Origin: Candidatus Methylomirabilis sp.
Lineage (GTDB): Bacteria; Methylomirabilota; Methylomirabilia; Methylomirabilales; 2-02-FULL-66-22
Reading direction: 5' to 3'
Assembly: GCA_037442485.1 (NCBI GenBank)
Contig: JBBIQE010000005.1
Coordinates: forward strand, 1 to 58,683
Length of the DNA: 58,683 nucleotides
A model generated the notes under the pieces. The model saw nothing but the letters and a program-made list of their open reading frames with translations. It was not told where the DNA came from and did not search any database. The position numbers and the translations under genes were made by a program. Shown here piece by piece: positions 1,127 through 58,673 of the stretch; within the stretch, counting starts at the first letter, position 1; every line of letters starts with the position of its first letter.

Positions 1127-1630
1127 ATGGGAAAGCGAAAGGGGAAGTCGAAGTCCACTTCGAAGGTGCAGCAAGGCTCCCGCTGGTCGAAGCTCCTGAT
1201 TCCGGCACTCTTGGCCGTTGCCCTGGCCGCAGGGGCGGCGACCTGGTTCTTCCTGCAGAAGTCGAGCCCGCAGGTCGTGGCGGCCCAGTACACGGGCGGG
1301 CCACGGTTGGCCGTGGACAAGGACTTCATTGACTTCGGCACCGTCCGCTTCGAGAAGTTCGTGACCGCCAGCTTCCGCCTGCGCAACGTCGGGGATCAGC
1401 CCCTTCGGCTGGCGGTGGACCGAAGGGTTGACGCCATCGAAGGCTGCTGACCCTCCGAGGTGGTCGTCGGTTCGACGACCTTGCGGCCGGGGCAGGAGAC
1501 CGAAGTTTCGACCGAATTCACCATGCACCAGGGGATGGGCGGCCCGCACCTCTTTGCGATCCGCGTGAAGACCAACGATCCCGTGGAGCCCGAGCGGGTC
1601 CTCAAGATCCGTTCGTACTGGCAGGGGTAG
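1127..1630 (+). CDS. DUF1573-like membrane-anchored protein with in-frame UGA (candidate selenocysteine, codon 108)
   Basis: ATG 1127 follows GGGAGGGG. Signal-anchor helix LLIPALLAVALAAGAATWFFL. The DUF1573-type pattern FIDFGTV...FRLRNVGDQPLRL...EGC[TGA 1448-1450]PSEVVVGSTTLRPGQETEV...FAIRVKTNDP continues in the same frame to TAG 1628-1630. The ORF track ends at the TGA. Confidence 0.6.
1462..1480 (+). promoter_or_regulatory. SECIS-like stem-loop downstream of UGA 1448-1450
   Basis: Perfect 8-bp stem GGTCGTCG/CGACGACC with a GTT apex (GGTTC if the closing pair opens). The stem starts 11 nt after the UGA and the apex is about 19 nt after it. Confidence 0.5.
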
Positions 1631-1693
1631 AAGGGGAGGCTTTGTCTTGACGATGAGACCCAGCCTGACTTGAAGGATGGCGCTTCCCATCCA

Positions 1694-1732
1694 GCCCCTT
1701 CTCGTTTCCCGACGAGAAGGGGCTTCGTTTTT
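1694..1732 (+). terminator. Rho-independent terminator after the DUF1573-like gene
   Basis: Perfect 11-bp stem GCCCCTTCTCG/CGAGAAGGGGC (1694-1704 / 1713-1723), 8-nt loop, then TTCGTTTTT. Confidence 0.7.
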
Positions 1733-1814
1733 CAGACGGCCATTGGGAGCGAGGCGATGAGAATGCGAACGTGTCTGGTGTAGGGCGGCAAGGCGGCCCA
1801 GTTCTTCGAGTCGG

Positions 1815-2250
1815 GTGCTCCAGGGCATCATCATCGGGATGGCCGCGGGCTTCTCCCCGACCAGGGGGAAGCCTCTGGCCAATCCCCTCGTCGGGGAAGG
1901 TTTGCCGGGGGGGCCGGGCGTCTATCCCCCGGGGGTTCCGGGGGTTGCCGGGCGGGCCGCGCTTCGGGCTGGGGGTGGTCGTGGCCGGCGGCTGCGCCCC
2001 GGGGACGCTGTACCGGATCGGCGAGGGCTGGGCAGCGTCCGTGTTCACGCGGGGGAGGGATGATCGTCGGCATGCCTGCGGGGACGTCGCCGGCCGCGGC
2101 CACCTGGGGGGCTCTTTTCGGCCGCGCCTGGCCCAGGGGTGTGACCTGGGCGCGTTCTTCTCGGCCCTGGGGCTGAACGGGTGGGTCTTTGGCGCGGGTC
2201 TGGCCGCCGGGGCGTATCTGGGTCTGCTGGGGATCAAGCGGCTGGCGTGA
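1815..2250 (+). pseudogene. YeeE/YedE-like (sulfur/selenium transport family) membrane protein remnant, frame-disrupted
   Basis: The segment FGLGVVVAGGCAPGTLYRIGEGWAASVF resembles the GGCxxG...GEG signature of YeeE/YedE. Hydrophobic segments lie in three different frames: VLQGIIIGMAAGF, GMIVGMPAG..ATWGALFG and LGAFFSALGLNGWVFGAGLAAGAYLGLLG. At least 2-3 frame changes are therefore needed. Confidence 0.4.
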
Positions 2251-6936: not shown

Positions 6937-7323
6937 TCACCAGATCCGTCTGACTCCGTACCTTCGAAAGATAGGATCGGCAGAAACCACGGCCATGCCC
7001 TCCTCAAGGGCCTGCGCGGCCATGAGACGGTCGAAGGGATCGCGGTGGTGCCACGGGAGACGCGTCACGCGAACCACGTGGCGGAACTCGATAGGCAACT
7101 GCTGGAAACGATTGAGCGCGAGTTGCTCCGGGATGAAACGGTCCATGGTGGTGGGCAGCTTCAATTTGCCCAGGCCCAGCTTGATGGCCATCTCCCAGCA
7201 GCTAGCCAGGCTCAGGAGGCAATCGTTTTCGGGTCTTACGATGGCTGAATGGGCTTTGGCGGACAGGGCCGGTGCGTCTTGGACCCACCACAGAAAGGTC
7301 TGGGTGTCCAGCAGGAGGCGCAT
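6937..7323 (-). CDS. vapC: PIN-domain toxin (VapC-like)
   Basis: MRLLLDTQTFLWW... and ...HRDPFDRLMAAQA..VSADPIF show a PIN acidic-residue pattern. The start overlaps the antitoxin stop (TGATG). Confidence 0.85.
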   Translation of the reverse strand: MRLLLDTQTFLWWVQDAPALSAKAHSAIVRPENDCLLSLASCWEMAIKLGLGKLKLPTTMDRFIPEQLALNRFQQLPIEFRHVVRVTRLPWHHRDPFDRLMAAQALEEGMAVVSADPIFRRYGVRRIW

Positions 7324-7562
7324 CAGGTGTATTCCTTGAAGTCTTCAGGCGTCTCATCGAAATCGGGGGCCATCCACACGCGCCCTTTGGCCGAGCCCGG
7401 CGTGCGCGACCCCTTGGGCGGCTGCAACGGGACGAGCTTGAGGAGCGGCCTGTTGTCCCTGGCGATGATGACCTCCTCGCCCAGGAGTGCCTTGCGCACG
7501 AGCTCCGAGAAACGGGCCTTGGCCTCTGCCACATTGAATTTCGCCACAACAGCAACCTCCAA
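7323..7562 (-). CDS. Phd/YefM-type antitoxin
   Basis: FNVAEAKARFSELVRKALLGEEVIIARDNRPLLKLVPL is typical of the prevent-host-death antitoxin N-terminus. It lies immediately upstream of the PIN gene. Confidence 0.8.
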   Translation of the reverse strand: MEVAVVAKFNVAEAKARFSELVRKALLGEEVIIARDNRPLLKLVPLQPPKGSRTPGSAKGRVWMAPDFDETPEDFKEYT

Positions 7563-31224: not shown

Positions 31225-32166
31225 CTATCGGCGCCACTTCGTCAGGTGCGACCGCGCGGCCTCGGCCACGTGGCGCGCGGTGACGCCGTACTTGTGCAGC
31301 AGCGCGTCGTTGGGGGCCGATTCGGCATAGACGTCCCGGATCCCGACCCGGGCGAGCGGGGTGGGGCGGTGCTCGGAGAGGGCCTCGGCCACGGCGCCGC
31401 CGAGTCCCCCGAGGATGCTGTGCTCCTCGGCCGTCACGACGAGGCCGGTCCGCTCGGCCGCGGCGATGACGGCGTCCACATCCAGCGGCTTCAGCGTGGG
31501 CACGTGCAGGACCAGGGCCGAGATCCCCTGCGACTTCAGCAGGTCGGCCGCCTCGAGCGTCCGCGGCGTCTGGATGCCCGTGCTGATCAGGGCCACGTCG
31601 CCCCCGTCCCGGAGCTGCACGGCGCGGCCGATCTCGAACCGGTACGCGGCGTCGAAGATGACCGGGCTCGGGTCCCGCCCCAACCGGAGGTAGGCCGGCC
31701 CGTGCACGGCCACCAGGGCCTCCATCGCCTTCTCGACCTCGACCCCGTCGGCCGGCGCGATGACCGTCATGTTGGGCATGGACCGCATGATGGCCAGGTC
31801 CTGGATGGAGAGATGGGTCTTGCCCGTCTTGCCCGCCAGCAGGCCGCTGTAGTGTCCCGTGATCTTCACGTTGTTCCTGGGCTGGGCCACCACGATCCGG
31901 ATCTGGTCCAGGTCCCGCTTGACAAAGCAGGCGAAGGTGCTGGTGAAGGGGATGAAGCCCAGGGTGGAGAGGCCCGCGGCCATGCCGATCATGTTCTGCT
32001 CGGCGATCCCCACCTGGAAGAAGCGCTCGGGGAAGGCTTGGGCGAAGAGGACGGCGCGGGTGGAGGGCGCCACGTCGGCGTCCAGGACCACCAGGTCCGG
32101 TATCCGCTTGCCCAGGCGGACCAGGCTCTGTCCGAAGGCCTCCCGCATGGCCATGGGATCTGGCAT
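31225..32166 (-). CDS. transketolase, C-terminal (pyrimidine-binding) subunit
   Basis: MREAFGQSLVRLGKRIPDLVVLDADVAPSTR..FFQVGIAEQNMIGMAAGL. It starts 5 nt after the N-terminal subunit gene. Confidence 0.9.
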   Translation of the reverse strand: MPDPMAMREAFGQSLVRLGKRIPDLVVLDADVAPSTRAVLFAQAFPERFFQVGIAEQNMIGMAAGLSTLGFIPFTSTFACFVKRDLDQIRIVVAQPRNNVKITGHYSGLLAGKTGKTHLSIQDLAIMRSMPNMTVIAPADGVEVEKAMEALVAVHGPAYLRLGRDPSPVIFDAAYRFEIGRAVQLRDGGDVALISTGIQTPRTLEAADLLKSQGISALVLHVPTLKPLDVDAVIAAAERTGLVVTAEEHSILGGLGGAVAEALSEHRPTPLARVGIRDVYAESAPNDALLHKYGVTARHVAEAARSHLTKWRR

Positions 32167-32171
32167 GGCGC

Positions 32172-32999
32172 TCACCTCCTCACCGCCAGCTCGGCTCTGG
32201 CCTGCCGATACTCCTGCTCGTTGGGGGGCTTGGCGTGCCAGGCCGGCACGTTTTCCATGAAGGAGACGCCCTTGCCCTTGACCGTGTGCGCCAGCAGGAC
32301 GCCGGGCCGGCCCTGGACCCGCTGCAGCTCCTCCAGGCCGCCCAGGATGGAGGCGACATCGTGGCCGTCGCACTCGCGGACCTCCCAGCCGAAGGCGCGC
32401 CACTTCTCCGGGACCGGGTCCATGGGCATGGCCTTGGCGATGAAGTCGCTCAACTGGATCTTGTTCCAGTCCACGATGGCCGTCAGGTTGTCCAGGCGGT
32501 AGGCCGCGGCCGCCATGGCGGCCTCCCACACCTGCCCCTCCTGGATCTCGCCATCCCCCAGCAGGACGTACACGCGGAACTTCTTGCCGCGAAGGCGCGC
32601 GCCCAGCGCCATGCCGATCCCGGGGGAGAGGCCCTGGCCCAGGGAGCCCGAGGACATGTCCACGCCCGGGGTGTGCATATCGGGATGGCCCTGCAGGATG
32701 GAGTCCAGCTCGTCGTAGGTCTTCAGGACCTCCGGCGGGAAGAATCCGCGCTCGGCCAGGGTGACATAGTAGATGGGTGCGGCGTGCCCCTTGCTGAGGA
32801 TGAACCGGTCCCGATCCGGCCAGTCGGGCCGGGCCGGGTCGATCCGCAGCACCCGGAAATACAGGCAGGCCAGGATCTCGGCCAGGGAGAAGGACCCCCC
32901 GGGGTGCCCGGCCTGGGCGTGCCAGATCATGTCCAGGGTGCGGCGGCGCAGGCGATGGGCCACCTCCTGGATCTCGCCAACGGTGAGGAGTTCCTCCAT
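32172..32999 (-). CDS. transketolase, N-terminal (TPP-binding) subunit
   Basis: HAQAGHPGGSFSLAEILACLYF..SKGHAAPIYY..LLGDGEIQEGQVWEA. Confidence 0.9.
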   Translation of the reverse strand: MEELLTVGEIQEVAHRLRRRTLDMIWHAQAGHPGGSFSLAEILACLYFRVLRIDPARPDWPDRDRFILSKGHAAPIYYVTLAERGFFPPEVLKTYDELDSILQGHPDMHTPGVDMSSGSLGQGLSPGIGMALGARLRGKKFRVYVLLGDGEIQEGQVWEAAMAAAAYRLDNLTAIVDWNKIQLSDFIAKAMPMDPVPEKWRAFGWEVRECDGHDVASILGGLEELQRVQGRPGVLLAHTVKGKGVSFMENVPAWHAKPPNEQEYRQARAELAVRR

Positions 33000-33423
33000 A
33001 GTCACCCCCTTCGCGTTTGGATGCGTGAGCGCCCGCGCCCACGCCGGATGATGGGAGGGCCCGCGGCGCCGGCCGAGGGTCCGGGATGCGCCCGGGACCG
33101 CAGAGCCGGTCCGGGCATTCGGCCGAGACTCTAGCCCCTCGCGCCGGCCCTCGCAAGCCGGAGCGCGCAAATGCCTCGGAAAACATACATGCGCGGCGGG
33201 GATGCCGCCGGCACGCCGCCCCTCCGGTGCAGCCCCCGGATCTCCTCCGGCCCGTCGCCGAGCGACGAAGGGCGGCCCCGGGACCGGGTCTCGTCGCCCG
33301 CCCCGGGCTCCTCGACCCTGATCGCATCCGCCCCCGTGTCGGCCGGCCTCTCGGAGCGGAACGGCCCACCGGGATCCGGCGGAGGTCCAGGACCGCGAGG
33401 CCCTCCAGCGCCCCGGCCAGGCT

Positions 33424-34305
33424 TCACCTCGCCGCCTCGCCCCGGCCCCCGAGGAGCTGATCGAGGGGCGAGCGGGTCTCGCGCGGCGCCCAGGTCCCGC
33501 GCACCCAGGCGTAGGCCGGGTCGTCCGACGCCTGCATGCTCCGGACATCGCCGGCCAGGACATTCAGGTAGTAGCAGTGATACCCGGGGGCGACCGCCAC
33601 CGGGTGATAGCCCTCGCGGATCAGGACCAGGTCGTTGTCCCGGACCGTCAGGGTCTCGTCCACGCGGCCGTCGCCGGTGTAGAGGCGCTGGAGGGCGAAG
33701 CCGTCGGGGTGGCTCAACTTGTAATAGTAGGTCTCCTCCAGCTTCACCTCGCGGGGGGGATCGTGCCGGTCGTGCTTGTGGGGCGGATAGCTCGACCAGT
33801 TGCCGCTGGGCGTATAGACCTCGACGATCAGCAACCGGTGGGCGGGGAATTCCGGCTTCAGCAGGTGGACGATCCGCCGCGTGGCGTTCCGTCCGCCCCG
33901 GATCTCGACCTCCACATCCGGGGGCGAGATCAGGCGCGCCGGGAAGTCCCGGTCGGTCCGGGCGCTGCAGAGGGCGACCTCCAGGGGCCTCGTCGCCCGC
34001 AGCGCATAGGCGGTCCGTCGCGGCAGGTAGAGGGCGTGGGGCAGGCCGTCGAAGACGGTCGGTCGCTCTCCCAGGCCCTTCCAGGTTCCGGCCGTGGACT
34101 GCACGTCGCACTGGCCTCCCAAAACGACCAGGGCGGTCTCGTGATCCCCGGTCTCTGCCGACAGCGTTTCCCCGGGCCGAAGGGCCCGGACCCCGAAGCC
34201 GATGTAGCGCCAGGCCGCGCGCTCGGGACTCACCGAGTGGATCTCGCCCGCCCCCTCCGGCCCCAGGCGGTTCCCGTGAATCAGCGGATCAATCCTGGTC
34301 GTCAT
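33424..34305 (-). CDS. iolB: 5-deoxy-glucuronate isomerase-like (KduI/IolB family cupin)
   Basis: VYTPSGNWSSYPPHKHDRHDPPREVKLEETYYYK is the IolB signature region. ATG 34305 is preceded by GGGAGG. Confidence 0.8.
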   Translation of the reverse strand: MTTRIDPLIHGNRLGPEGAGEIHSVSPERAAWRYIGFGVRALRPGETLSAETGDHETALVVLGGQCDVQSTAGTWKGLGERPTVFDGLPHALYLPRRTAYALRATRPLEVALCSARTDRDFPARLISPPDVEVEIRGGRNATRRIVHLLKPEFPAHRLLIVEVYTPSGNWSSYPPHKHDRHDPPREVKLEETYYYKLSHPDGFALQRLYTGDGRVDETLTVRDNDLVLIREGYHPVAVAPGYHCYYLNVLAGDVRSMQASDDPAYAWVRGTWAPRETRSPLDQLLGGRGEAAR

Positions 34306-34466
34306 GGTGTGACCTCCCGCGGCCTCCCGCGCCTCCCTGTCCTGCGGCCTCCACGCCCCCCGGGCTGTGGCGGTGGCCTGCACGATAGCACAGCGGATGC
34401 CCATCCGGCCAATGCCAATCGCGCGCGGGGGTCGGCGGCTCACAGGATGCCGGGGCCTCCATCCGC

Positions 34467-34495
34467 TTGCCCTCGGCCGCGCCTTCGTGCATAAT
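34467..34495 (+). promoter_or_regulatory. possible sigma70-type promoter for the ferritin operon
   Basis: TTGCCC - 17 nt - CATAAT, about 100 nt upstream of ATG 34594. This is a by-eye match only. Confidence 0.25.
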
Positions 34496-34593
34496 GGCGC
34501 CGCCCCCGGGCGGTCGCCCTTGCCGGGGGCCGATTCCCTCCCGTGAGCCGTGCGTGCCACAGACCTTGCGATACAGAAAGGAGAGAGCGGGCC

Positions 34594-35091
34594 ATGCTCA
34601 GTCAAGCGATGCAGGAGGCGCTCAACGCGCAGATCAGTGCCGAGATCAGCTCCGCCTACCTGTACCTGTCCATGGCGGCGTACTGCGCGGCCAGCAACCG
34701 CCCGGGGTGCGCCCACTGGATGCGCGTGCAGTGGCAGGAAGAGCTGGGCCATGCCCTGAAGCTGTTCGACCACATCCACGACCGGGGCGGGCGCGCCGTC
34801 CTCAAGGCCATCCCCCAGCCGGCCACGGAGTTCACGTCGCTCCTGGATGTCTTCCGGCAGGTCCTGGATCATGAACGGGACGTGACCGCGAGGATCCACC
34901 GGCTCTACGAGACGGCGGTCAAGGAGAACGATTACCCGGCCCAGGTCATGCTGCAGTGGTTCATCACCGAACAGGTGGAGGAGGAGAAGACGGCCGCCGA
35001 GGTCCTGGAGCAGCTCAAGCTGATCGGCGACCAGGGGCCCGCCGTGATCATGCTGGACCACCACCTGGGGATGCGCAAGGCGGGGGAGTAG
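34594..35091 (+). CDS. non-haem ferritin
   Basis: LNAQISAEISSAYLYLSMAAY...WQEELGHALKLFDHI...LQWFITEQVEEEK carries the ferroxidase-centre pattern of bacterial Ftn. AAAGGAGAG precedes the ATG. Confidence 0.9.
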   Translation: MLSQAMQEALNAQISAEISSAYLYLSMAAYCAASNRPGCAHWMRVQWQEELGHALKLFDHIHDRGGRAVLKAIPQPATEFTSLLDVFRQVLDHERDVTARIHRLYETAVKENDYPAQVMLQWFITEQVEEEKTAAEVLEQLKLIGDQGPAVIMLDHHLGMRKAGE

Positions 35092-35146
35092 CGAGGAGAC
35101 GGCTCGGGTGTCGCGTGGCCCGGCGGATCCGGGCGGAGGATGACCG

Positions 35147-35647
35147 ATGGCAACCCGCGATCAGGTTCTGGCCGAGGTGTACGAGCTGGCCCTGCAGAAC
35201 GACATGCACTACTTCGGGTGAACGCAGGCCGTGCTTGCAGCTTTGCAGGCGACGCTGGGCGTAGGCGACACCCTGGTGTTGAAGGCGGGCAGCGCCCTGG
35301 CGGGCGGGGTGGCCGTGCAGGGCGAGACCTGCGGGGCGCTGACCGGCGCCATCATGGCCCTGGGCTGCGTGGTCGGGCGGGAGCGGCTGGAGGACATCGC
35401 GCAGTACCAGCGGGCCAAGGAGCCGGCGCAGGAAATGTACCGGCGGTTCCGCGACGAGGTGGGGCACAGCATCTGTGCCGAGATCCACAAGCTCAAGTAC
35501 GGCCGGGTCTATCGCTTGTCCGATCCCGAGGAGGCGAAGGCCTTCCACCAGGACGGCGGACACAGCCGGACCGGCTGCCCCGAGGTGTGCGGGATCGCCG
35601 CCCGGATCGCCGCCGACATCATCCTGCGCCTGCGCGCGGGCGACTGA
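35147..35647 (+). CDS. C_GCAxxG_C_C family protein with in-frame UGA at the first conserved Cys (candidate selenocysteine, codon 25)
   Basis: ATG 35147 follows GGAGGA plus a 6-nt spacer. Translation reads MATRDQVLAEVYELALQNDMHYFG[TGA 35219-35221]TQAVLAALQ...GETCGALTGAIMALG...HSICAEI...GCPEVCG. The ORF track only reports the part after the TGA, from GTG 35231. Confidence 0.65.
35232..35251 (+). promoter_or_regulatory. SECIS-like stem-loop downstream of UGA 35219-35221
   Basis: 8-bp stem TGCTTGCA/TGCAGGCG (two G-U pairs) with a GCTT apex. The stem starts 10 nt after the UGA and the apex is 18 nt after it. Confidence 0.45.
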
Positions 35648-35658
35648 GGGGAGGGTCC

Positions 35659-36051
35659 ATGGTCACGATCCAGCCCTACTGCGCCAAGGGGGTGTTCGAC
35701 CCGCCCACCTACCACCAGGCCATCAAGGTCACGGGGGGCCAGACGATCCTCTTCCTCTCGGGGCAGGTGGCCTACGACGAGAAGGGCGCCCCCGCGCATC
35801 GGGGCGATTTCGTGGCCCAGGCGCGCGCCGTGTTCCGGGCCATCAGGGCCCAGGTGGAGGCGGGGGGCGGAACGGTCGCGAACATCGTGAAGGTCAACAC
35901 CTACCTCACCGACATTCGCTACCGGGCCGACCTGCTGCCGGTGCGGGAGGAGTTCTTCGGGAAAAAGATGCCGGCCTCCACCCTGGTCGAGGTCTCGGCC
36001 CTCGCCCACCCCGACTGGCTGATCGAGGTGGAGGCCATCGCGGTCCTGTGA
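35659..36051 (+). CDS. ridA: RidA/YjgF-family enamine/imine deaminase
   Basis: PPTYHQAIKVTGGQTILFLSGQVAYD...VKVNTYLTDI...PASTLVEVSALAHPDWLIEVEAIAVL. Confidence 0.9.
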   Translation: MVTIQPYCAKGVFDPPTYHQAIKVTGGQTILFLSGQVAYDEKGAPAHRGDFVAQARAVFRAIRAQVEAGGGTVANIVKVNTYLTDIRYRADLLPVREEFFGKKMPASTLVEVSALAHPDWLIEVEAIAVL

Positions 36052-36106
36052 CCGTCCGCGGGGCAAGAGGAGGGGCGCTCGCGGACTGAGAGGGGGCGGC
36101 GCGGCC

Positions 36107-36709
36107 ATGGCGACGTTGCATCTCGGCTTTCTCGCCTCCCACGGCGGCAGCAACATGCAGGCCATCATTGACGCCTGCAAGTCGGGGCGGCTGGATGCCA
36201 AGCCCTGCGTCGTGATCAGCAACAATTCCGGCTCCATGGCCCTGCAGCGGGCGAAGAACGAGGGGATCCCGCATTACCACATCAGCGCCCTGACCCACCC
36301 CGGCACCCTGGAGGACGAGGAGATCCTCCGGGTGCTGAAACGGCACGGCGTGGACACGGTGGTCCTGGCCGGCTACATGAAGATGCTGGGCCCCGCCACC
36401 CTGGGGGCCTACCGCGGCCGGATCCTCAACATACATCCCGCGCTGCTTCCCAAGTTCGGCGGAAAGGGCATGTACGGCAAGCGGGTGCACGAGGCGGTCC
36501 TGGCCGCCGGCGAGACGGTGACGGGCGTGACGATCCACATCGTGGACGAGCACTACGATACCGGGCCGATCATCGCCCAGTGCCAGGTGCCGGTCCTGCC
36601 GGAGGACACGGTGGAGTCGCTGGCCGAGCGGGTGCTGAAGCACGAGCACGTCCTGTACGCCGAGACCCTCCAGAAGATCGCCGACGGCCGGATCGTGTTG
36701 CCGAGCTGA
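36107..36709 (+). CDS. purN: phosphoribosylglycinamide formyltransferase
   Basis: LASHGGSNMQAIIDAC...VVLAGYMKML...ILNIHPALLPKFGG...GVTIHIVDEHYDTGPIIAQ. Confidence 0.9.
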   Translation: MATLHLGFLASHGGSNMQAIIDACKSGRLDAKPCVVISNNSGSMALQRAKNEGIPHYHISALTHPGTLEDEEILRVLKRHGVDTVVLAGYMKMLGPATLGAYRGRILNIHPALLPKFGGKGMYGKRVHEAVLAAGETVTGVTIHIVDEHYDTGPIIAQCQVPVLPEDTVESLAERVLKHEHVLYAETLQKIADGRIVLPS

Positions 36710-37323
36710 TGCGGGCGGCGCGGAGCCGGGACAGCCTGCGATCGGGACCTTGCCGATGGCAGGATATGGAACGCCCGGCGCCCGTGGAGCCGGTAGAGGC
36801 CGAAGCCCTGCTGGTCGAGTGCGAGAATGGTAGCCCATCCCAGCTCTCTCCCTCCCCACGGATGAACCCCATCCGGTCCCGCGGCAGGGCGCGCTGAAGC
36901 CTCTCCTGTCTTGGGGCTTTTCGAAACTTCGCCCCGCCTTCCCGCATGGGCGTTGCTTCCGGTGCGCGCAGCGCCAGACCATCGGTGCCCCCTCGGAGTG
37001 TTCTGTCAAGAGCCATCCGGGGACTGGAGGCGGGATGCGGCGCGCAGGAAACCGACGCCGAGGCTGAGCCGAGGCGAGGCTGACACGGGGTGGGGGAGCC
37101 CGTGGCGTTGGCGGGCGACCTCCGGGTTCCGAACCTGGTGGGGGTGGTCCAACTGGTATGCCTGGAGCGGGCCGGCACGGGCAGGCGGCGTCCCGGAGCC
37201 CGACCACCGGAAAATTTGCGGAGCCGAAAACCCGGGGGGCGGGAAGGGCCTCCCCATTCTCCTCCCGCCCCGCCGCCTGGTCTGTACCGAGCAGCTCTTC
37301 TCCCCGAAGGTTCCCCCCGGGTC

Positions 37324-39759
37324 CTACCGCCGGCGGGCCTGGGCCTGGCCGCGGGACGGCGTCTTCCCCCGGGCGGCCCGGGGCGCCGACTTCACCGTCC
37401 GCCGGAGGGCCTCCACGTACTTCTTGATGGCCCGGTACTGGCTCCGGCCGTCCAGGCCGGCCTCGGCCAGCACCATCTCCCCCTGACCGCTGCCCAGGAA
37501 GTGGCCCTTCCGGAACGGGTGGAGCGTCAGGGACCGCCCGAGGTCGGATCGCACCCAGCGGAACATCGTGGGCAGGGTGAAGCCGGTGATGCCCATGGCC
37601 TCCCTGGCCCGCTCTTCCGGGAAGAGCTTGCGCTGCCTCGCCGGGGGGAGCAGGGCGAACAGCTCGGCGCTGGAGACGTAGTAGATCCAGAGGTCCAGGC
37701 CGTCCTGGTCGAGAAGCGGCAGCGCCTCCTCGACGAAGGCGTAGGTGGCCGCACTCTCCTGCAGGACGATCGTCCCCTCGCCCTGGCCGCGAGGCCGGCG
37801 CAGCAGATACAGGCCGGTCACGCTCTCTTCGGCCGGGGCCAGCCCCAACCCGGCGCGGTCGAGCACCTTCTCGTTGGGCCGCGTCACGAAGGGGGCGATG
37901 ATGGCGGGCCGGCGGGCGAGGGCGGCCGCCACCAGCGGCCAGATCTCCTGGGGATCCCAGGGGGTCAGCGTGACGATCGTCCCCTGCGGGAAGTTCTCCT
38001 GGAGGAGCTGGAGCGGCTGTGGGTCGGCGTGGGTGGGTCCATCCTCGCCGGTCTTGAGACCCGCGTGGGCGCAGATGAGGAAGAGCGGCCGGTACGGCTG
38101 GCCCGTCACCGCCTGCTTGGCCTGGGCGCCGATGGCGTGCAGCCGCGAGGCGATGTGGCCCAGGGCGGCGATGAAGGCGCCATACGACGAGCCGACGCCG
38201 ATGTGGTGGCCGAAGGTGGACAGGCCGGACAGCACGCCCGTTATCCCGTCCTCGCAGATGCCGCCGACGGCCAGGAGCCGCGCGCCCGGATTCCGCACCG
38301 CGTTCCAATAGCCGTCGCCGAACCCGGCCCCTATCACGTTCACGCTGGTCGAGCCGAGCAGGTCGGCCGCGGCGGCGAGGATGGCCCCGCCGGACACCTT
38401 GTTGTAGTAGTTGAGGGCACGGCCCAGCTCGGCGCGCAGCGTCGTGACACTTCCCGGCTGCAGCTTCACCTCGGCGGGCGGCTGGGGACCCCTGGCGGCC
38501 AGTGCGTACACGGCCTCGACCCGCGGCGCGTCCGGGCGCGGCTGCCGGTTGAGCCGGTCGAGCCGGTCGCGGGCGGCCGTGAGGCGCGCGACGAAGGCCT
38601 CGACCGCCGGCCGGCTCTCCCCGATGACTTTCCGCACGATCTGGAGCGACTCCCAGAAGCACTGCTCCAGGATGGCCGCGCCGTCCGGGCCCGCCTGGCA
38701 CCGCTGCTTCCCGGCCTCGCAGGTCGGCACCATCATGTTGGCCTTCCCCGTGAGATCGGCGACGGCCCTGCAGAAGCCCTCGGAGCAGAGCTTGTGGCCG
38801 GCCCCGTGGGCGGCCTTGCCCTCGATGCCGTACTGCCAGCCCTTCAGCGTCCGGTAGATGACCGCGGTGGGCTGTCCGTTGCCGATGGCGAGGGCGGCGC
38901 GCTGCGCCGCCACGATCTGCTGGAAGTCCCGCCCGTCGGGGACGTAGATCACATTCCAATCGTGGAGGTGGAACAGTTCGGCCGGGCTCCACTGGACGTA
39001 GTCGCCGGGCTGGCCATCCTCGCGGCACACGCGGTTCGTGTCAATGGAGGCCTGGTTCCAGTCCAGGTGCAGGATGGCGTTGCCGAGCGACGCGGTGCCC
39101 GCACCGGCCAGGGCTTCCGCCACGCGGCCGGGGGTGAGGCCCCCCTCGCCCTCGACGATGTGGACGAAGGGTGCGGCCGCGCCATAGTAGTCCCTGGCGC
39201 CGAAGGCCAGCCCGAGCGAGCTGGCGACGCCCACGCCGGAGGCGCCGGTGGAGAGGCGGATGAAGGGGGTGGCCGGGGTGGGGTGGCCATCCAGCGCCTT
39301 GGCCCCGAACTGCGTGAACAGCGGGGTCTTGGTGATGGGATTGCGCCGGAAGCCCAGGAGGTCCTCCAGGCGGAGGCGGAACTTCACGTCCGCGGGGAGG
39401 AGCTGGGGCGCGGCCAGCCGGGCCATCTCGTCCCGGATGGCCCACATGGCGTACAGCCCCATGGCCTTGTGCCCGGCCGCGTACGAGATGATGTCCGCGT
39501 CCTCCCGGTCGGGCTGGGCCAGGTCATAGGCGAGCGCATCGAAGAGCAGGGCGGCCACGAACCGCCCGGAAGAGATCGAGCCTCCCGGGTGCCCCGACAT
39601 CGGGACGTAGTTGTACAGGAGGGCGCACAGCGACCGGTAGATCATGTCCAGGGTCTCGAAGTGGCCGACCTCCTCCGGCGAGAGCGGGGGCTGCCCCGCC
39701 TTGAGGATCTCGGTCACATCCGCGTACGTCCCGCGCCTCGGTCCAAACTCGAATGCCAT
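37324..39759 (-). CDS. long transketolase-family (TPP-dependent) protein, 811 aa
   Basis: MSGHPGGSISSGRFVAALLF...AAGHKAMGLYAMW...EGEGGLTPGRVAEA is TK N-domain-like. The remainder has pyrimidine-binding and C-terminal-like regions. Basic C-terminal tail. Confidence 0.75.
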   Translation of the reverse strand: MAFEFGPRRGTYADVTEILKAGQPPLSPEEVGHFETLDMIYRSLCALLYNYVPMSGHPGGSISSGRFVAALLFDALAYDLAQPDREDADIISYAAGHKAMGLYAMWAIRDEMARLAAPQLLPADVKFRLRLEDLLGFRRNPITKTPLFTQFGAKALDGHPTPATPFIRLSTGASGVGVASSLGLAFGARDYYGAAAPFVHIVEGEGGLTPGRVAEALAGAGTASLGNAILHLDWNQASIDTNRVCREDGQPGDYVQWSPAELFHLHDWNVIYVPDGRDFQQIVAAQRAALAIGNGQPTAVIYRTLKGWQYGIEGKAAHGAGHKLCSEGFCRAVADLTGKANMMVPTCEAGKQRCQAGPDGAAILEQCFWESLQIVRKVIGESRPAVEAFVARLTAARDRLDRLNRQPRPDAPRVEAVYALAARGPQPPAEVKLQPGSVTTLRAELGRALNYYNKVSGGAILAAAADLLGSTSVNVIGAGFGDGYWNAVRNPGARLLAVGGICEDGITGVLSGLSTFGHHIGVGSSYGAFIAALGHIASRLHAIGAQAKQAVTGQPYRPLFLICAHAGLKTGEDGPTHADPQPLQLLQENFPQGTIVTLTPWDPQEIWPLVAAALARRPAIIAPFVTRPNEKVLDRAGLGLAPAEESVTGLYLLRRPRGQGEGTIVLQESAATYAFVEEALPLLDQDGLDLWIYYVSSAELFALLPPARQRKLFPEERAREAMGITGFTLPTMFRWVRSDLGRSLTLHPFRKGHFLGSGQGEMVLAEAGLDGRSQYRAIKKYVEALRRTVKSAPRAARGKTPSRGQAQARRR

Positions 39760-40077
39760 GGAGCGTCTCCTTTCTGCCGGATCGGCGACCTCGCGGCGAC
39801 TCCGGGCCCGGGGCGCCGCGGCGCATGCGTCCGGGGGCCGCCGGGAATCCTGCCTGCGGTCCCTCGGGATGAGTGCCCACGCTTCTCGTTGAACCGCTGC
39901 AAATTAAAGCCACCGCCGATCGCGGTGCAATGACTTTTCGCGGAATGATCGGATTTGAGGACAGACCTCCAGAGGTCAGCGGCGGCGGGATTGAGCTTGT
40001 CTCTGCGGGATCATCTGGGATAGTATAGTTTGCGGGCGCCTGCGCCGAATGATCCGGGCGTCAGATGCGGGCACAGC

Positions 40078-40458
40078 ATGCGCAAGGATGTCGAGCGACT
40101 CGTCCTTCAAGCGCGCCGAGACCTGGAAAACGCGCGCAAGAACATTGGGATCGGCGCCTACGAGGTGGCCGCCTTCCTCTCCCACCAGGCGGTGGAGGAA
40201 TACCTCAAGGGGGCGTGGATCCAGAAACGGCGCGCGCGCCCACCGGCAACTCAGTATCTCAGGGAGTTGGGGGAGGGGCTCAAGATTCCGAAGCGACTCA
40301 TGGCGCACTTGCTCTTCTTGAACCCGGATTATACGGTGGCCCGCTATCCGGACGCGGCCAACGGGGTCCGGTACGAACTCTACGACCGGGCCATCGCCGG
40401 CGCCAAGGTGAAGGCTGCGGAAGAGGTGGCTCGGTGGATCGAGTCGTTGATCCGATAG
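40078..40458 (+). CDS. HEPN-domain protein
   Basis: LVLQARRDLENARKNIGIGAYEVAAFLSHQAVEEYLKG...LNPDYTVARYPD fits the HEPN pattern (an R-x4-6-H-like region). Confidence 0.8.
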   Translation: MRKDVERLVLQARRDLENARKNIGIGAYEVAAFLSHQAVEEYLKGAWIQKRRARPPATQYLRELGEGLKIPKRLMAHLLFLNPDYTVARYPDAANGVRYELYDRAIAGAKVKAAEEVARWIESLIR

Positions 40459-45040: not shown

Positions 45041-45877
45041 TCACACTCCCTTGAACCCTCCCACCAGCTTCTCCGGCTCGGCCCGCCGCTGGATCATGGC
45101 GAGGATCGCCAGGGATGGGAGGACCATGATCACGGCCATGGCGCTGGTGATCTCCCAGTACCCGTCCCCCACCGCCAGGTACGTCCGGATCGGCAGCGTC
45201 ACGGTGTGGGGTCCGTAGGTCAGAAGCGTCAGGGTGAACTCGTTGTAGGAATGGGTGAAGGAGAAGATCATGGAGGCCAGGATGCCGGGCATGATCAGGG
45301 GCAGGACGACGTAGAAGAACCGCTTGAGCGTGTTGGCGCCGCAGACCCCGGCCGCCTCCAGCACGCGCTCGTCCAGGCCCTCGAAGGTGGCGGAGAGGAC
45401 CAGAATGGCGTAGGGGGCGCAGACGGAGACGTGGGCCAGCGCCACGCCGAGATAGGTATCCACCAGGTCGAGGGTGTAGAAGATCTTGGCCACCCCCAGC
45501 GCGTAGGTGATGGGCGGGATCATCCGCGGCAGGAGGATCAGGGCCATCAGCACCTCCTTGCCCGGCATCTGCCGCCGCCCGAAGGCCCAGCCGGCGAAGA
45601 TGCCGATCACGGTGCTGACCGCCACGGCGATGACCCCGATGATCAGGGTGTTCTTCATGACCTCGGGGATGTTGCCCACCTCGACCGCCCAGCGGTACCA
45701 CTCCAGGGTGAGCTCGGGCGGCAGCCAGAGGCGGCCGAACCATCCCTTGCCCACGGACCGCAGCGCGATCATGAGAAAGGGGGCCAGGATGAGCAGGCTG
45801 AGGCTGGCGAGCAGGGTGTAGCCCAGGAGGAGCTTCCCGTCCCACAGACCGCGGAGGTACGCCCTGAGCAGCCTCAC
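45041..45877 (-). CDS. ABC transporter permease (PotC-like)
   Basis: Six hydrophobic helices and an EAA-type loop LEAAGVCGANTLKRFFYVVLPLIMPG. Confidence 0.9.
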   Translation of the reverse strand: MRLLRAYLRGLWDGKLLLGYTLLASLSLLILAPFLMIALRSVGKGWFGRLWLPPELTLEWYRWAVEVGNIPEVMKNTLIIGVIAVAVSTVIGIFAGWAFGRRQMPGKEVLMALILLPRMIPPITYALGVAKIFYTLDLVDTYLGVALAHVSVCAPYAILVLSATFEGLDERVLEAAGVCGANTLKRFFYVVLPLIMPGILASMIFSFTHSYNEFTLTLLTYGPHTVTLPIRTYLAVGDGYWEITSAMAVIMVLPSLAILAMIQRRAEPEKLVGGFKGV

Positions 45878-57421: not shown

Positions 57422-58673
57422 TGAGAGTGAGTCATTCTACGCAGCCGCTTGGGCTGCCTCCTGCATGCGAAGCGCGGCCTCGAATTCCTGTGGGCTCCGG
57501 TAGCCGAGCGCCGAGTGCACGTACCGCTGGGTGTCGTCCACCGCGATCCCCTGGGCGATGACCTCCCGCGCCGCCTCCAGGCTCGTGCACTCCCGCAGCC
57601 AGAGCCGCTCTTCCTCGATCGTCCGCATCAGCCGCTCGGTTTCGGCGTTGCCCTTCGGGTTATCAGAGCTGGTGAAGACCTGCTCGATCCCCAACCGGCT
57701 CAGGGTGGCCATGAACCGGGTCGCGGTCGGTTGGCTCCCGTTGTCGGAGACCAGCCTCAGCCCGGCCCCCCGCCCCCCCTGCGGGCATGCGGCCTGGACC
57801 GCCTGGGCCCGGGCCGCCTCCCACTCCTGCCGGCGGCTGCGGAGGGCCAGGTTCCAGCCGACGATCTTCTTCGGGTACCCGTCCCGCCCGATGCCCACGG
57901 ACGCCCAGCCCAGGGCGGGGAGCAGGCACGTCGTCCTGTCGATCCCCCCGTACGGCCGGGGCCGGGTGGCCGTCGGCTGCGCCTGGGGCGTCCGCGGCGC
58001 GGTATGAGGCGCCCGCTTGAGGGTCCAGCCGGCCGCCCGCATCAGCCGGTACCCCCGCTTCGTATGGACGCGGAGCCCCTCCCGGTACCGCAGCCCGGCC
58101 CACACCCGCCGGGTACCCGCTTTGCGGGTGCCCAGAAGGGATGGGCCTCCGGGATCGGGCGGAGCCGCGCCCGGAGCGCCGCATCGGGGGGATTCGGCAG
58201 GGCCGCCGGCACCGGGCGCTCTTGCCGAGCGGCCTAGGAGCCGCTCCGGGACAGCCCGAGGATCCGGCAGGCTGCCGCCACCGACCACCCGGCCTCCCGC
58301 AGCGCGTCCACCGGGGCCACCGCCGCCCGACCAGTTCGTCGGTTTTTTTTAACAGCTCAATGGCCACGGCTTGTTTGCCGATGAGACGCTGGAGCGTCTC
58401 GATCTCGCGCCGGAGCGCCTCCTCCGTGTTCGGGATCCCATGGGTCACGGCCCGCGGGCCCCCTTCCAGGAAGCGATCCCGCCACTGGTCGGACTGGGTC
58501 TGAGCACTCTGATGCTCCCGGCAAAGCTCGGCGACCGGTTTGGCCCCCTTCAGTCCCTCCAGCACGATGGCGAGCTTCTCCTCGGCGGTCCACTTGCGCC
58601 CCTTCATCTTGGACACCTCCTTCGGTCAGTGTTGCATCCTCCGCACTCACTCTCGAACGTGTCCACTCTCTCA
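57422..58673 (-). mobile_element. IS3-family insertion sequence (decayed)
   Basis: orfA HTH (KWTAEEKLAIVLEGL..AELCREH) is followed by an A8 slippery run and then an orfB rve/DDE core (..SDNGSQPTATRF..DNPKGNAETERL). The ends read TGAGAG...CTCTCA with flanking GGGGG on both sides. An inner 10-bp inverted repeat GAGAGTGAGT lies at 57423-57432 and 58645-58654. Confidence 0.75.
57437..58616 (-). pseudogene. IS3 transposase orfAB with extra lesions
   Basis: After a -1 shift at T8 58343-58350 (A AAA AAA on the coding strand), the orfB frame reads VDALREAGWSVAAACRILGLSRSGS then TAG (58234-58236). A further 1-nt shift near 58131-58134 is needed to reach RRVWAGLRYREGLRVHTKRGYRLMR. Confidence 0.7.

Follow-up and report, generated by a model that had tools for sequence, protein, structure and literature searches.

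Within the 58.7-kb window (58,683 nucleotides, the whole stretch of DNA that was analysed), a ferritin gene and a RidA/L-PSP family gene enclose a reading frame that is interrupted once by TGA (Table 1). From ATG 35147 the frame reads MATRDQVLAEVYELALQNDMHYFG-TGA(35219-35221)-TQAVLAALQ... and is terminated by TGA 35645-35647, with the nearest upstream in-frame stop at 35141. The mechanical list of open reading frames reports a single ORF of 138 aa at this locus, starting at GTG 35231, and the public gene call, from an NCBI-derived collection, is likewise a 138-aa product. A sequence-only reading made earlier of this DNA had pointed out that the ORF track holds the short form alone, and that an ATG with a GGAGGA and a 6-nt spacer opens a longer frame running through the TGA at 35219-35221; the sequence agrees on both counts. 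The 24 codons 5' of the UGA have a GC3 of 0.88 and a GC2 of 0.25, the values that mark coding sequence in this window of 68% GC.

Table 1. Positions of the genes and sequence elements discussed in the text, numbered from the first nucleotide of the window.
Feature	Position	Strand	Details
Ferritin	34594..35091	+	PF00210, E = 1.2e-41; directly upstream, 55-nt gap
Shine-Dalgarno-like GGAGGA	35135..35140	+	6-nt spacer to ATG 35147-35149; read from sequence
C-GCAxxG-C-C selenoprotein CDS (predicted)	35147..35647	+	166 residues, U at residue 25, plus stop
UGA, predicted Sec	35219..35221	+	first invariant Cys column
Core bSECIS hairpin (predicted)	35232..35251	+	5' arm UGCUUGCA 35232-35239; loop GCUU 35240-35243; 3' arm UGCAGGCG 35244-35251
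RidA/L-PSP family	35659..36051	+	PF01042, E = 8.7e-24; 11 nt downstream; same order in L001
PurN-like formyltransferase	36107..36709	+	PF00551, E = 2.4e-50; next downstream; syntenic in 9 NC10-type loci
Second selenoprotein gene (predicted), membrane-anchored DUF1573-like Ig-fold	1127..1630	+	UGA 1448-1450, 'EGC-U-P'

The 166-residue product, entered in family-model queries with Cys substituted for U25, scores above the cutoffs of the two models that had been proposed for comparison, PF09719 (C_GCAxxG_C_C; Pfam, E = 2.4e-23, 82.9 bits against a cutoff of 27, residues 24-158) and TIGR01909 (62.7 bits against a cutoff of 47.4), the latter currently named "C-GCAxxG-C-C family (seleno)protein" in NCBIfam. 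The four-Cys signature of the family, C ... (G)C(G)AxxG ... C ... C, appears as U25, C62, C110, and C148, plus C144. Three of these residues lie in the motifs TCGALTG (C62, in GETCGALTG), SICAEI (C110), and EVCG (C148), and C62, C110, C144, and C148 are invariant in homologue alignments A1 and A3. The earlier description of three family cysteines with the fourth replaced by TGA is borne out by these motifs and by the Cys column in homologues.

A search of 5.8 billion proteins returned close relatives of 124-145 aa (65-99% identity, covering 68-84% of the query) and near-full-length relatives (53-69% identity, covering 89-100%), all of them 165-200 aa long except one of 151 aa. The full-length homologues align end to end across the TGA, with the consensus NDMxYFG[C/W]TQAVLAALQ. 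The 'W' in such database entries arises because gene calls read TGA as Trp: for one 'W' entry, P0015, all three encoding loci have TGA at this position, and the bacterial code does not yield the database protein. Codons at this column were tallied over 80 loci from a scan that took one genome for each GTDB species, a further five loci, and the window itself. TGA occupies the Sec column in 60 loci (55 distinct sequences) from NC10/Methylomirabilota, Syntrophales and other Thermodesulfobacteriota, Nitrospinota, and a Baltobacteraceae MAG; the closest loci of the scan, at 82-84% identity, belong to candidate division NC10/Methylomirabilota MAGs. Carriers of the TGA form include L014, from the complete NC10 chromosome OY970067.1, and L019, a Candidatus Methylomirabilis sp. 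TGC or TGT occupies the column in 25 loci (24 distinct sequences), mostly more distant homologues from Alphaproteobacteria, Chloroflexota, Bathyarchaeota, and some Thermodesulfobacteriota. Both kinds of homologue on which the sequence-only reading would have had its proposal judged, with UGA and with Cys at this column, thus exist, and its placement of Sec at the first invariant Cys is matched by TGA in 55 distinct orthologues and TGC/TGT in 24 distinct homologues.

The segment upstream of the TGA belongs to the same conserved unit. At least 24 codons are open upstream of the TGA in 59 of the 60 TGA loci, the remaining locus being cut by a contig end, and the entropy of the 22 codons before the TGA is 0.89, 0.65, and 1.48 bits at codon positions 1, 2, and 3, respectively. 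Of the 55 distinct TGA forms, 36 have the non-start codon GTT at the position of 35231, and there is therefore no conserved start at this point. Two observations that the sequence-only reading had named as fatal to its own proposal, a lack of conservation in the upstream 24 codons and a start of the homologues at the equivalent of 35231, were accordingly sought and the opposite was found in each case, with conserved codons that vary in a coding-like manner and with GTT, in most TGA forms, where the start would have been.

A hairpin with an 8-bp stem and a GCUU apex begins 10 nt after the UGA, and its loop begins 18 nt after the UGA, as had been read from the sequence before. The 24-nt core folds with -10.3 kcal/mol (z = -2.4), and 5 of 200 shuffled sequences fold equally well, while its 55-nt context (z = -0.41) is unremarkable for a sequence of 68% GC. 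The case for a SECIS element rests on comparative data; taken alone the candidate hairpin is modestly unusual, and the comparative data put it far beyond chance. In the ungapped alignment of the 55 TGA forms (A2), with helix columns 14-21/26-33, 97.3% of cells are paired across the 55 sequences, a share that drops to 43-58% if the 3' partners are shifted by 1-3 columns, and none of 500 shuffles matches the observed helix pairing or covariation score. At pair 15-32 (35233/35250 in the window), 36 of the 55 forms have U-A and 17 have G-C, and this compensatory change couples a synonymous Val difference (GTT/GTG) to a Glu/Ala replacement (GAA/GCN). The codons that make up the stem are nearly fixed in the TGA forms, with CTT (Leu) in 55/55, GCA/GCG in 55/55, GCT in 49/55, and YTG in 55/55, although a genome whose GC3 is ~0.9 uses such codons rarely. 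The Cys forms differ in all of these measures: third-position entropy over the stem is 0-0.6 bits in the Sec forms and 1.4-2.0 bits in the 24 distinct Cys forms, helix pairing falls from 97% to 58%, and the mean MFE rises from -10.6 to -5.3 kcal/mol, so that most Cys forms lack the hairpin. Judged from the aligned sequences, the hairpin is under nucleotide-level selection, being both conserved and covarying. The earlier proposal that the hairpin downstream of the UGA serves Sec decoding gains support from this conservation and covariation and from the frozen synonymous sites.

The bSECIS model (Zhang & Gladyshev 2005, as given in PMC13188914) has a loop of 3-9 nt, a stem of 4-16 bp, a G in the first two loop positions, a spacing of 16-37 nt from the UGA, and an MFE of at most -7.5 kcal/mol. 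The hairpin agrees with each of these constraints, with a 4-nt loop, a stem of 7-8 bp, G as the first loop nucleotide, a spacing of 18 nt, and -10.3 kcal/mol, although the loop GCUU departs from the commoner G[G/U] pattern. Like the E. coli fdhF-type SECIS and the general bSECIS model, it is a coding-region hairpin immediately 3' of the UGA; unlike the fdhF-type element, it has a GCUU rather than a G[G/U] loop, and it shows no sequence similarity or Rfam match to that element. Rfam searches of the whole window at gathering thresholds and of 35150-35350 at permissive E-values gave no SECIS or other relevant family, with two chance matches in all Rfam runs, and a missing match is expected because bacterial SECIS elements are diverse. 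In the mechanism we propose, hairpin 35232-35251 would act as a bacterial SECIS and recruit SelB carrying Sec-tRNA(Sec), so that Sec would occupy the first of the invariant Cys positions of the family.

Individual loci vary around this pattern. An NC10 orthologue (L022:3073-3120) has a UCUC apical loop, with Ser TCT replacing Ala GCT, and hence no G in the first two loop positions, while the other 54 sequences obey the bSECIS rule. Three Cys-form loci within Sec-rich clades (L051, L020, and L061) keep 7-8 of the 8 SECIS helix pairs (GTTCTTGCAGCTCTGCAAGAA in L051), and these hairpins look like fossil SECIS elements left after recent Sec-to-Cys conversions.

When the whole window was scanned, four in-frame TGAs had coding signal before and after them, at 35219, 1448, 45041(-), and 52375(-). 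The two sites on the reverse strand were rejected as Sec codons, since they look like an ordinary stop followed by the next gene in frame (MTDAMIEF... at 45041). The site at 1448 lies in a predicted second selenoprotein gene, whose product matches PF07610 (34.8 bits against a cutoff of 26.1) and, weakly, the OS_HP2 (seleno)protein model. In public data the gene is called as P0122 (107 aa), which ends at the TGA, as do ~100 public homologue entries, each 107 aa long; two homologues have 'W' and three have Cys ('EGCCP') at the position, and the 59 residues after TGA 1448 are conserved among homologues. A hairpin of 8 bp at 1462-1480 has a GUU loop starting 19 nt after the UGA. The homologues and the hairpin both agree with the earlier recognition of 1448 as a second case of UGA at a Cys position with a similar hairpin, and this gene thus offers independent in-genome evidence that Sec decoding operates. 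DUF1573 proteins are included in a list of selenoprotein families (PMC13188914). The published Sec motif of DUF1573 proteins is UGC and the window has the CU form, which may represent a different Sec position or a subfamily. Directly downstream, an ORF at 1669-2250 (+) has a partial match to the YeeE/YedE 'Sulf_transp' family (PF04143, 35.2 bits) and a GGCAPG motif in which the residue is Cys; YeeE/YedE is itself a listed selenoprotein family. Pfam annotation of ~45 ORFs found no selA, selB, or selD in the 58.7-kb window, and a tRNA scan of the same window found no selC/tRNA-Sec among zero tRNA genes.

These observations can be set against other ways of accounting for the TGA. If TGA 35219 were a true stop, the product would be the 138-aa protein from GTG 35231, which lacks the first Cys, and the 24 codons before it would be a leader or a mini-ORF. 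Public gene calls take the 138-aa form, and for most close homologues they give products of 124-145 aa, but the called starts vary between relatives (124, 130, 134, and 138 aa), and so there is no conserved alternative start; the GTT codon at the 35231 position in most TGA forms points the same way. Moreover, conservation of the upstream 24 residues extends across phyla, and in Cys homologues these residues run directly into the domain; their variation has the codon-position periodicity described above, and every one of the 25 non-TGA loci has Cys at the column. We consider a true stop extremely improbable. A single TGC to TGA change would be enough to produce the TGA as a nonsense mutation, in a pseudogene or otherwise, or as an assembly error, but the same TGA recurs in 55 distinct sequences, which belong to several phyla and were assembled independently, and both of its flanks are under purifying selection as judged by GC3 and conservation. 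The comparative data have in effect refuted this explanation already, and we put its probability close to nil.

The remaining alternative is that the UGA is read as Trp, Gly, or Cys, genome-wide or locally, with the hairpin stimulating generic readthrough. It draws on the public calls that give W and on the lack of visible Sec machinery in the window. However, TGA is the stop of 26 of the 41 Pfam-supported genes in the window, including the C-GCAxxG-C-C gene itself, and there is therefore no global recoding; the W calls derive from TGA loci whose database proteins the bacterial code does not give. In addition, non-TGA homologues invariably align a Cys here, as is standard for Sec/Cys pairs, the hairpin has bSECIS geometry, and the phylum is documented as Sec-using. 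Decoding by a standard amino acid is thus highly improbable. With very high confidence, we interpret UGA 35219 as a Sec codon in a 166-residue C-GCAxxG-C-C protein that gene callers have shortened, an assignment drawn from comparative sequence analysis.

The family was first reported as a selenoprotein, a 'putative redox protein', in an Olavius symbiont metagenome (Zhang & Gladyshev 2007, PMC1976440), and selenoproteome reviews include it, one of them as 'form 1' and 'form 2' (PMC13188914). Methylomirabilota are among the phyla with Sec-type Group 4 hydrogenases. Both the family and the phylum (NC10/Methylomirabilota) are therefore already known to use Sec, and the window gene is a mis-annotated member; because the family-level discovery dates from 2007, no new kind of system is involved, and the novelty implied by the sequence-only reading was overrated for a family already catalogued as selenoproteins. 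Published C-GCAxxG-C-C selenoproteins likewise have the four-Cys signature, Sec at one Cys position, and Cys homologues, and the new families of PMC1976440 have a hairpin just downstream of the UGA, as in the window gene. Compared with the published family, the orthologue group of the window gene has an additional CPxVC pair (C144/C148), and close NC10 relatives place the gene in a ferritin-RidA-PurN block.

The consequences are mainly for annotation. The 138-aa public call misses the N-terminal helix and one invariant residue of the predicted centre, and public entries for the closest homologues mostly repeat this miscall or carry a spurious Trp; among entries P0001-P0120, most of the closest are mis-called, at 124-145 aa with varying starts or with Trp at the Sec column. 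Correction adds two selenoproteins to one contig, in a phylum reported to have the largest bacterial selenoproteome: according to a groundwater MAG survey, as cited in a 2026 review, 63 selenoprotein genes are predicted in a Methylomirabilota MAG, the largest bacterial count. The nearly invariant SECIS GUKCUUGCAGCUYUGCARG, found across several phyla, is a marker of the orthologue group, and also marks Sec-to-Cys reversions that keep the fossil hairpin.

A structural model gives some indication of what the residue might do. A PDB sequence search with the single protein gave chance antibody matches alone. AlphaFold gives a confident all-helical model (pLDDT 94.1, pTM 0.90) for P0020, a Cys homologue with 67% identity to the window protein, and the sole credible PDB match of this model is 1h21_A, the 'novel iron centre' of split-Soret cytochrome c (Foldseek E = 0.03, probability 1.00, TMq 0.60, rmsd 6.7). 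When the family profile is compared with the PDB, 1h21 reaches just E = 0.66, with GETCGALxGA aligned on GTICGALYGA of 1h21, and the matching 33-residue fragment of 1h21 hits PF09719 alone in Pfam (E = 8e-5). The centre in 1h21 is said, from work of Abreu et al. in 2003, to be a Cys-ligated [2Fe-2S] cluster. The window protein and the non-haem iron-centre domain of split-Soret cytochrome c (Desulfovibrio desulfuricans ATCC 27774, PDB 1h21) have the GxxCGAxxGA motif in common, whereas the cytochrome has 247 residues, haems, and Cys rather than Sec, and the window protein has no CxxCH and only ~20% identity to it. Because the split-Soret iron-centre domain is the sole structural relative, the model suggests that U25, C62, C110, and C148 (plus C144 in this clade) may form a metal or redox centre, in which Sec would replace one metal-centre ligand or redox-active residue.

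The gene neighbourhood bears on function in this clade. A scan of 34200-37000 found a single promoter-like site, at 34467-34495 upstream of ferritin, and no terminator-like sites in the same interval, thus none between the four genes, which is consistent with one operon; ferritin is probably the first gene of a transcription unit shared with the predicted selenoprotein gene. Of the 85 related loci, 8 have ferritin at a distance of no more than ~3 kb, and these are without exception close NC10 relatives; the synteny is kept in L001, L002, and L006-L011 only, with ferritin downstream rather than upstream in L011. All-against-all ORF clustering of 86 loci found no neighbour shared across clades beyond spurious high-GC ORFs. 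Ferritin as a family-wide partner is ruled out by this restriction to close NC10 loci. The sequence-only reading was right about the flanking ferritin and RidA genes, but the role in iron handling that it took from ferritin is weakened by an adjacency found in 8 of 85 loci. In Bacteroides, a member of the family shares an iron-responsive cluster with an Nramp transporter (PMC10434189), and an iron-related role in this clade is plausible but weakly supported. A more specific possibility, which we put forward tentatively and consider unlikely, is that in the NC10 clade the Sec selenolate ligates a split-Soret-type non-haem iron/[2Fe-2S] centre in a small cytoplasmic protein that is co-transcribed with ferritin and tunes the redox potential for ferritin iron loading or release. 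If true, iron storage would be linked here to a natural Fe-S protein with a Sec ligand.

Several other features were seen in the window and in a relative. In that relative, L001 (NC10 contig Ga0181524_10000055), an RVT_1 reverse transcriptase gene sits beside an STM3845-family gene (L001:4585-6674) just upstream of the syntenic ferritin block; the window lacks this pair, which could form a defence or retroelement module. In the window, transketolase-type loci at 31225-33563 (-) and 37324-39903 (-) flank the ferritin block, one being a split N-terminal/C-terminal pair and the other long (~810-860 aa) and also syntenic in L001. At 6937-7344 (-), 40024-40458 (+), and 57437-58348 (-) lie isolated PIN- and HEPN-domain genes, which are probably toxin-antitoxin components, together with a fragment of an integrase core (rve) close to the end of the contig.
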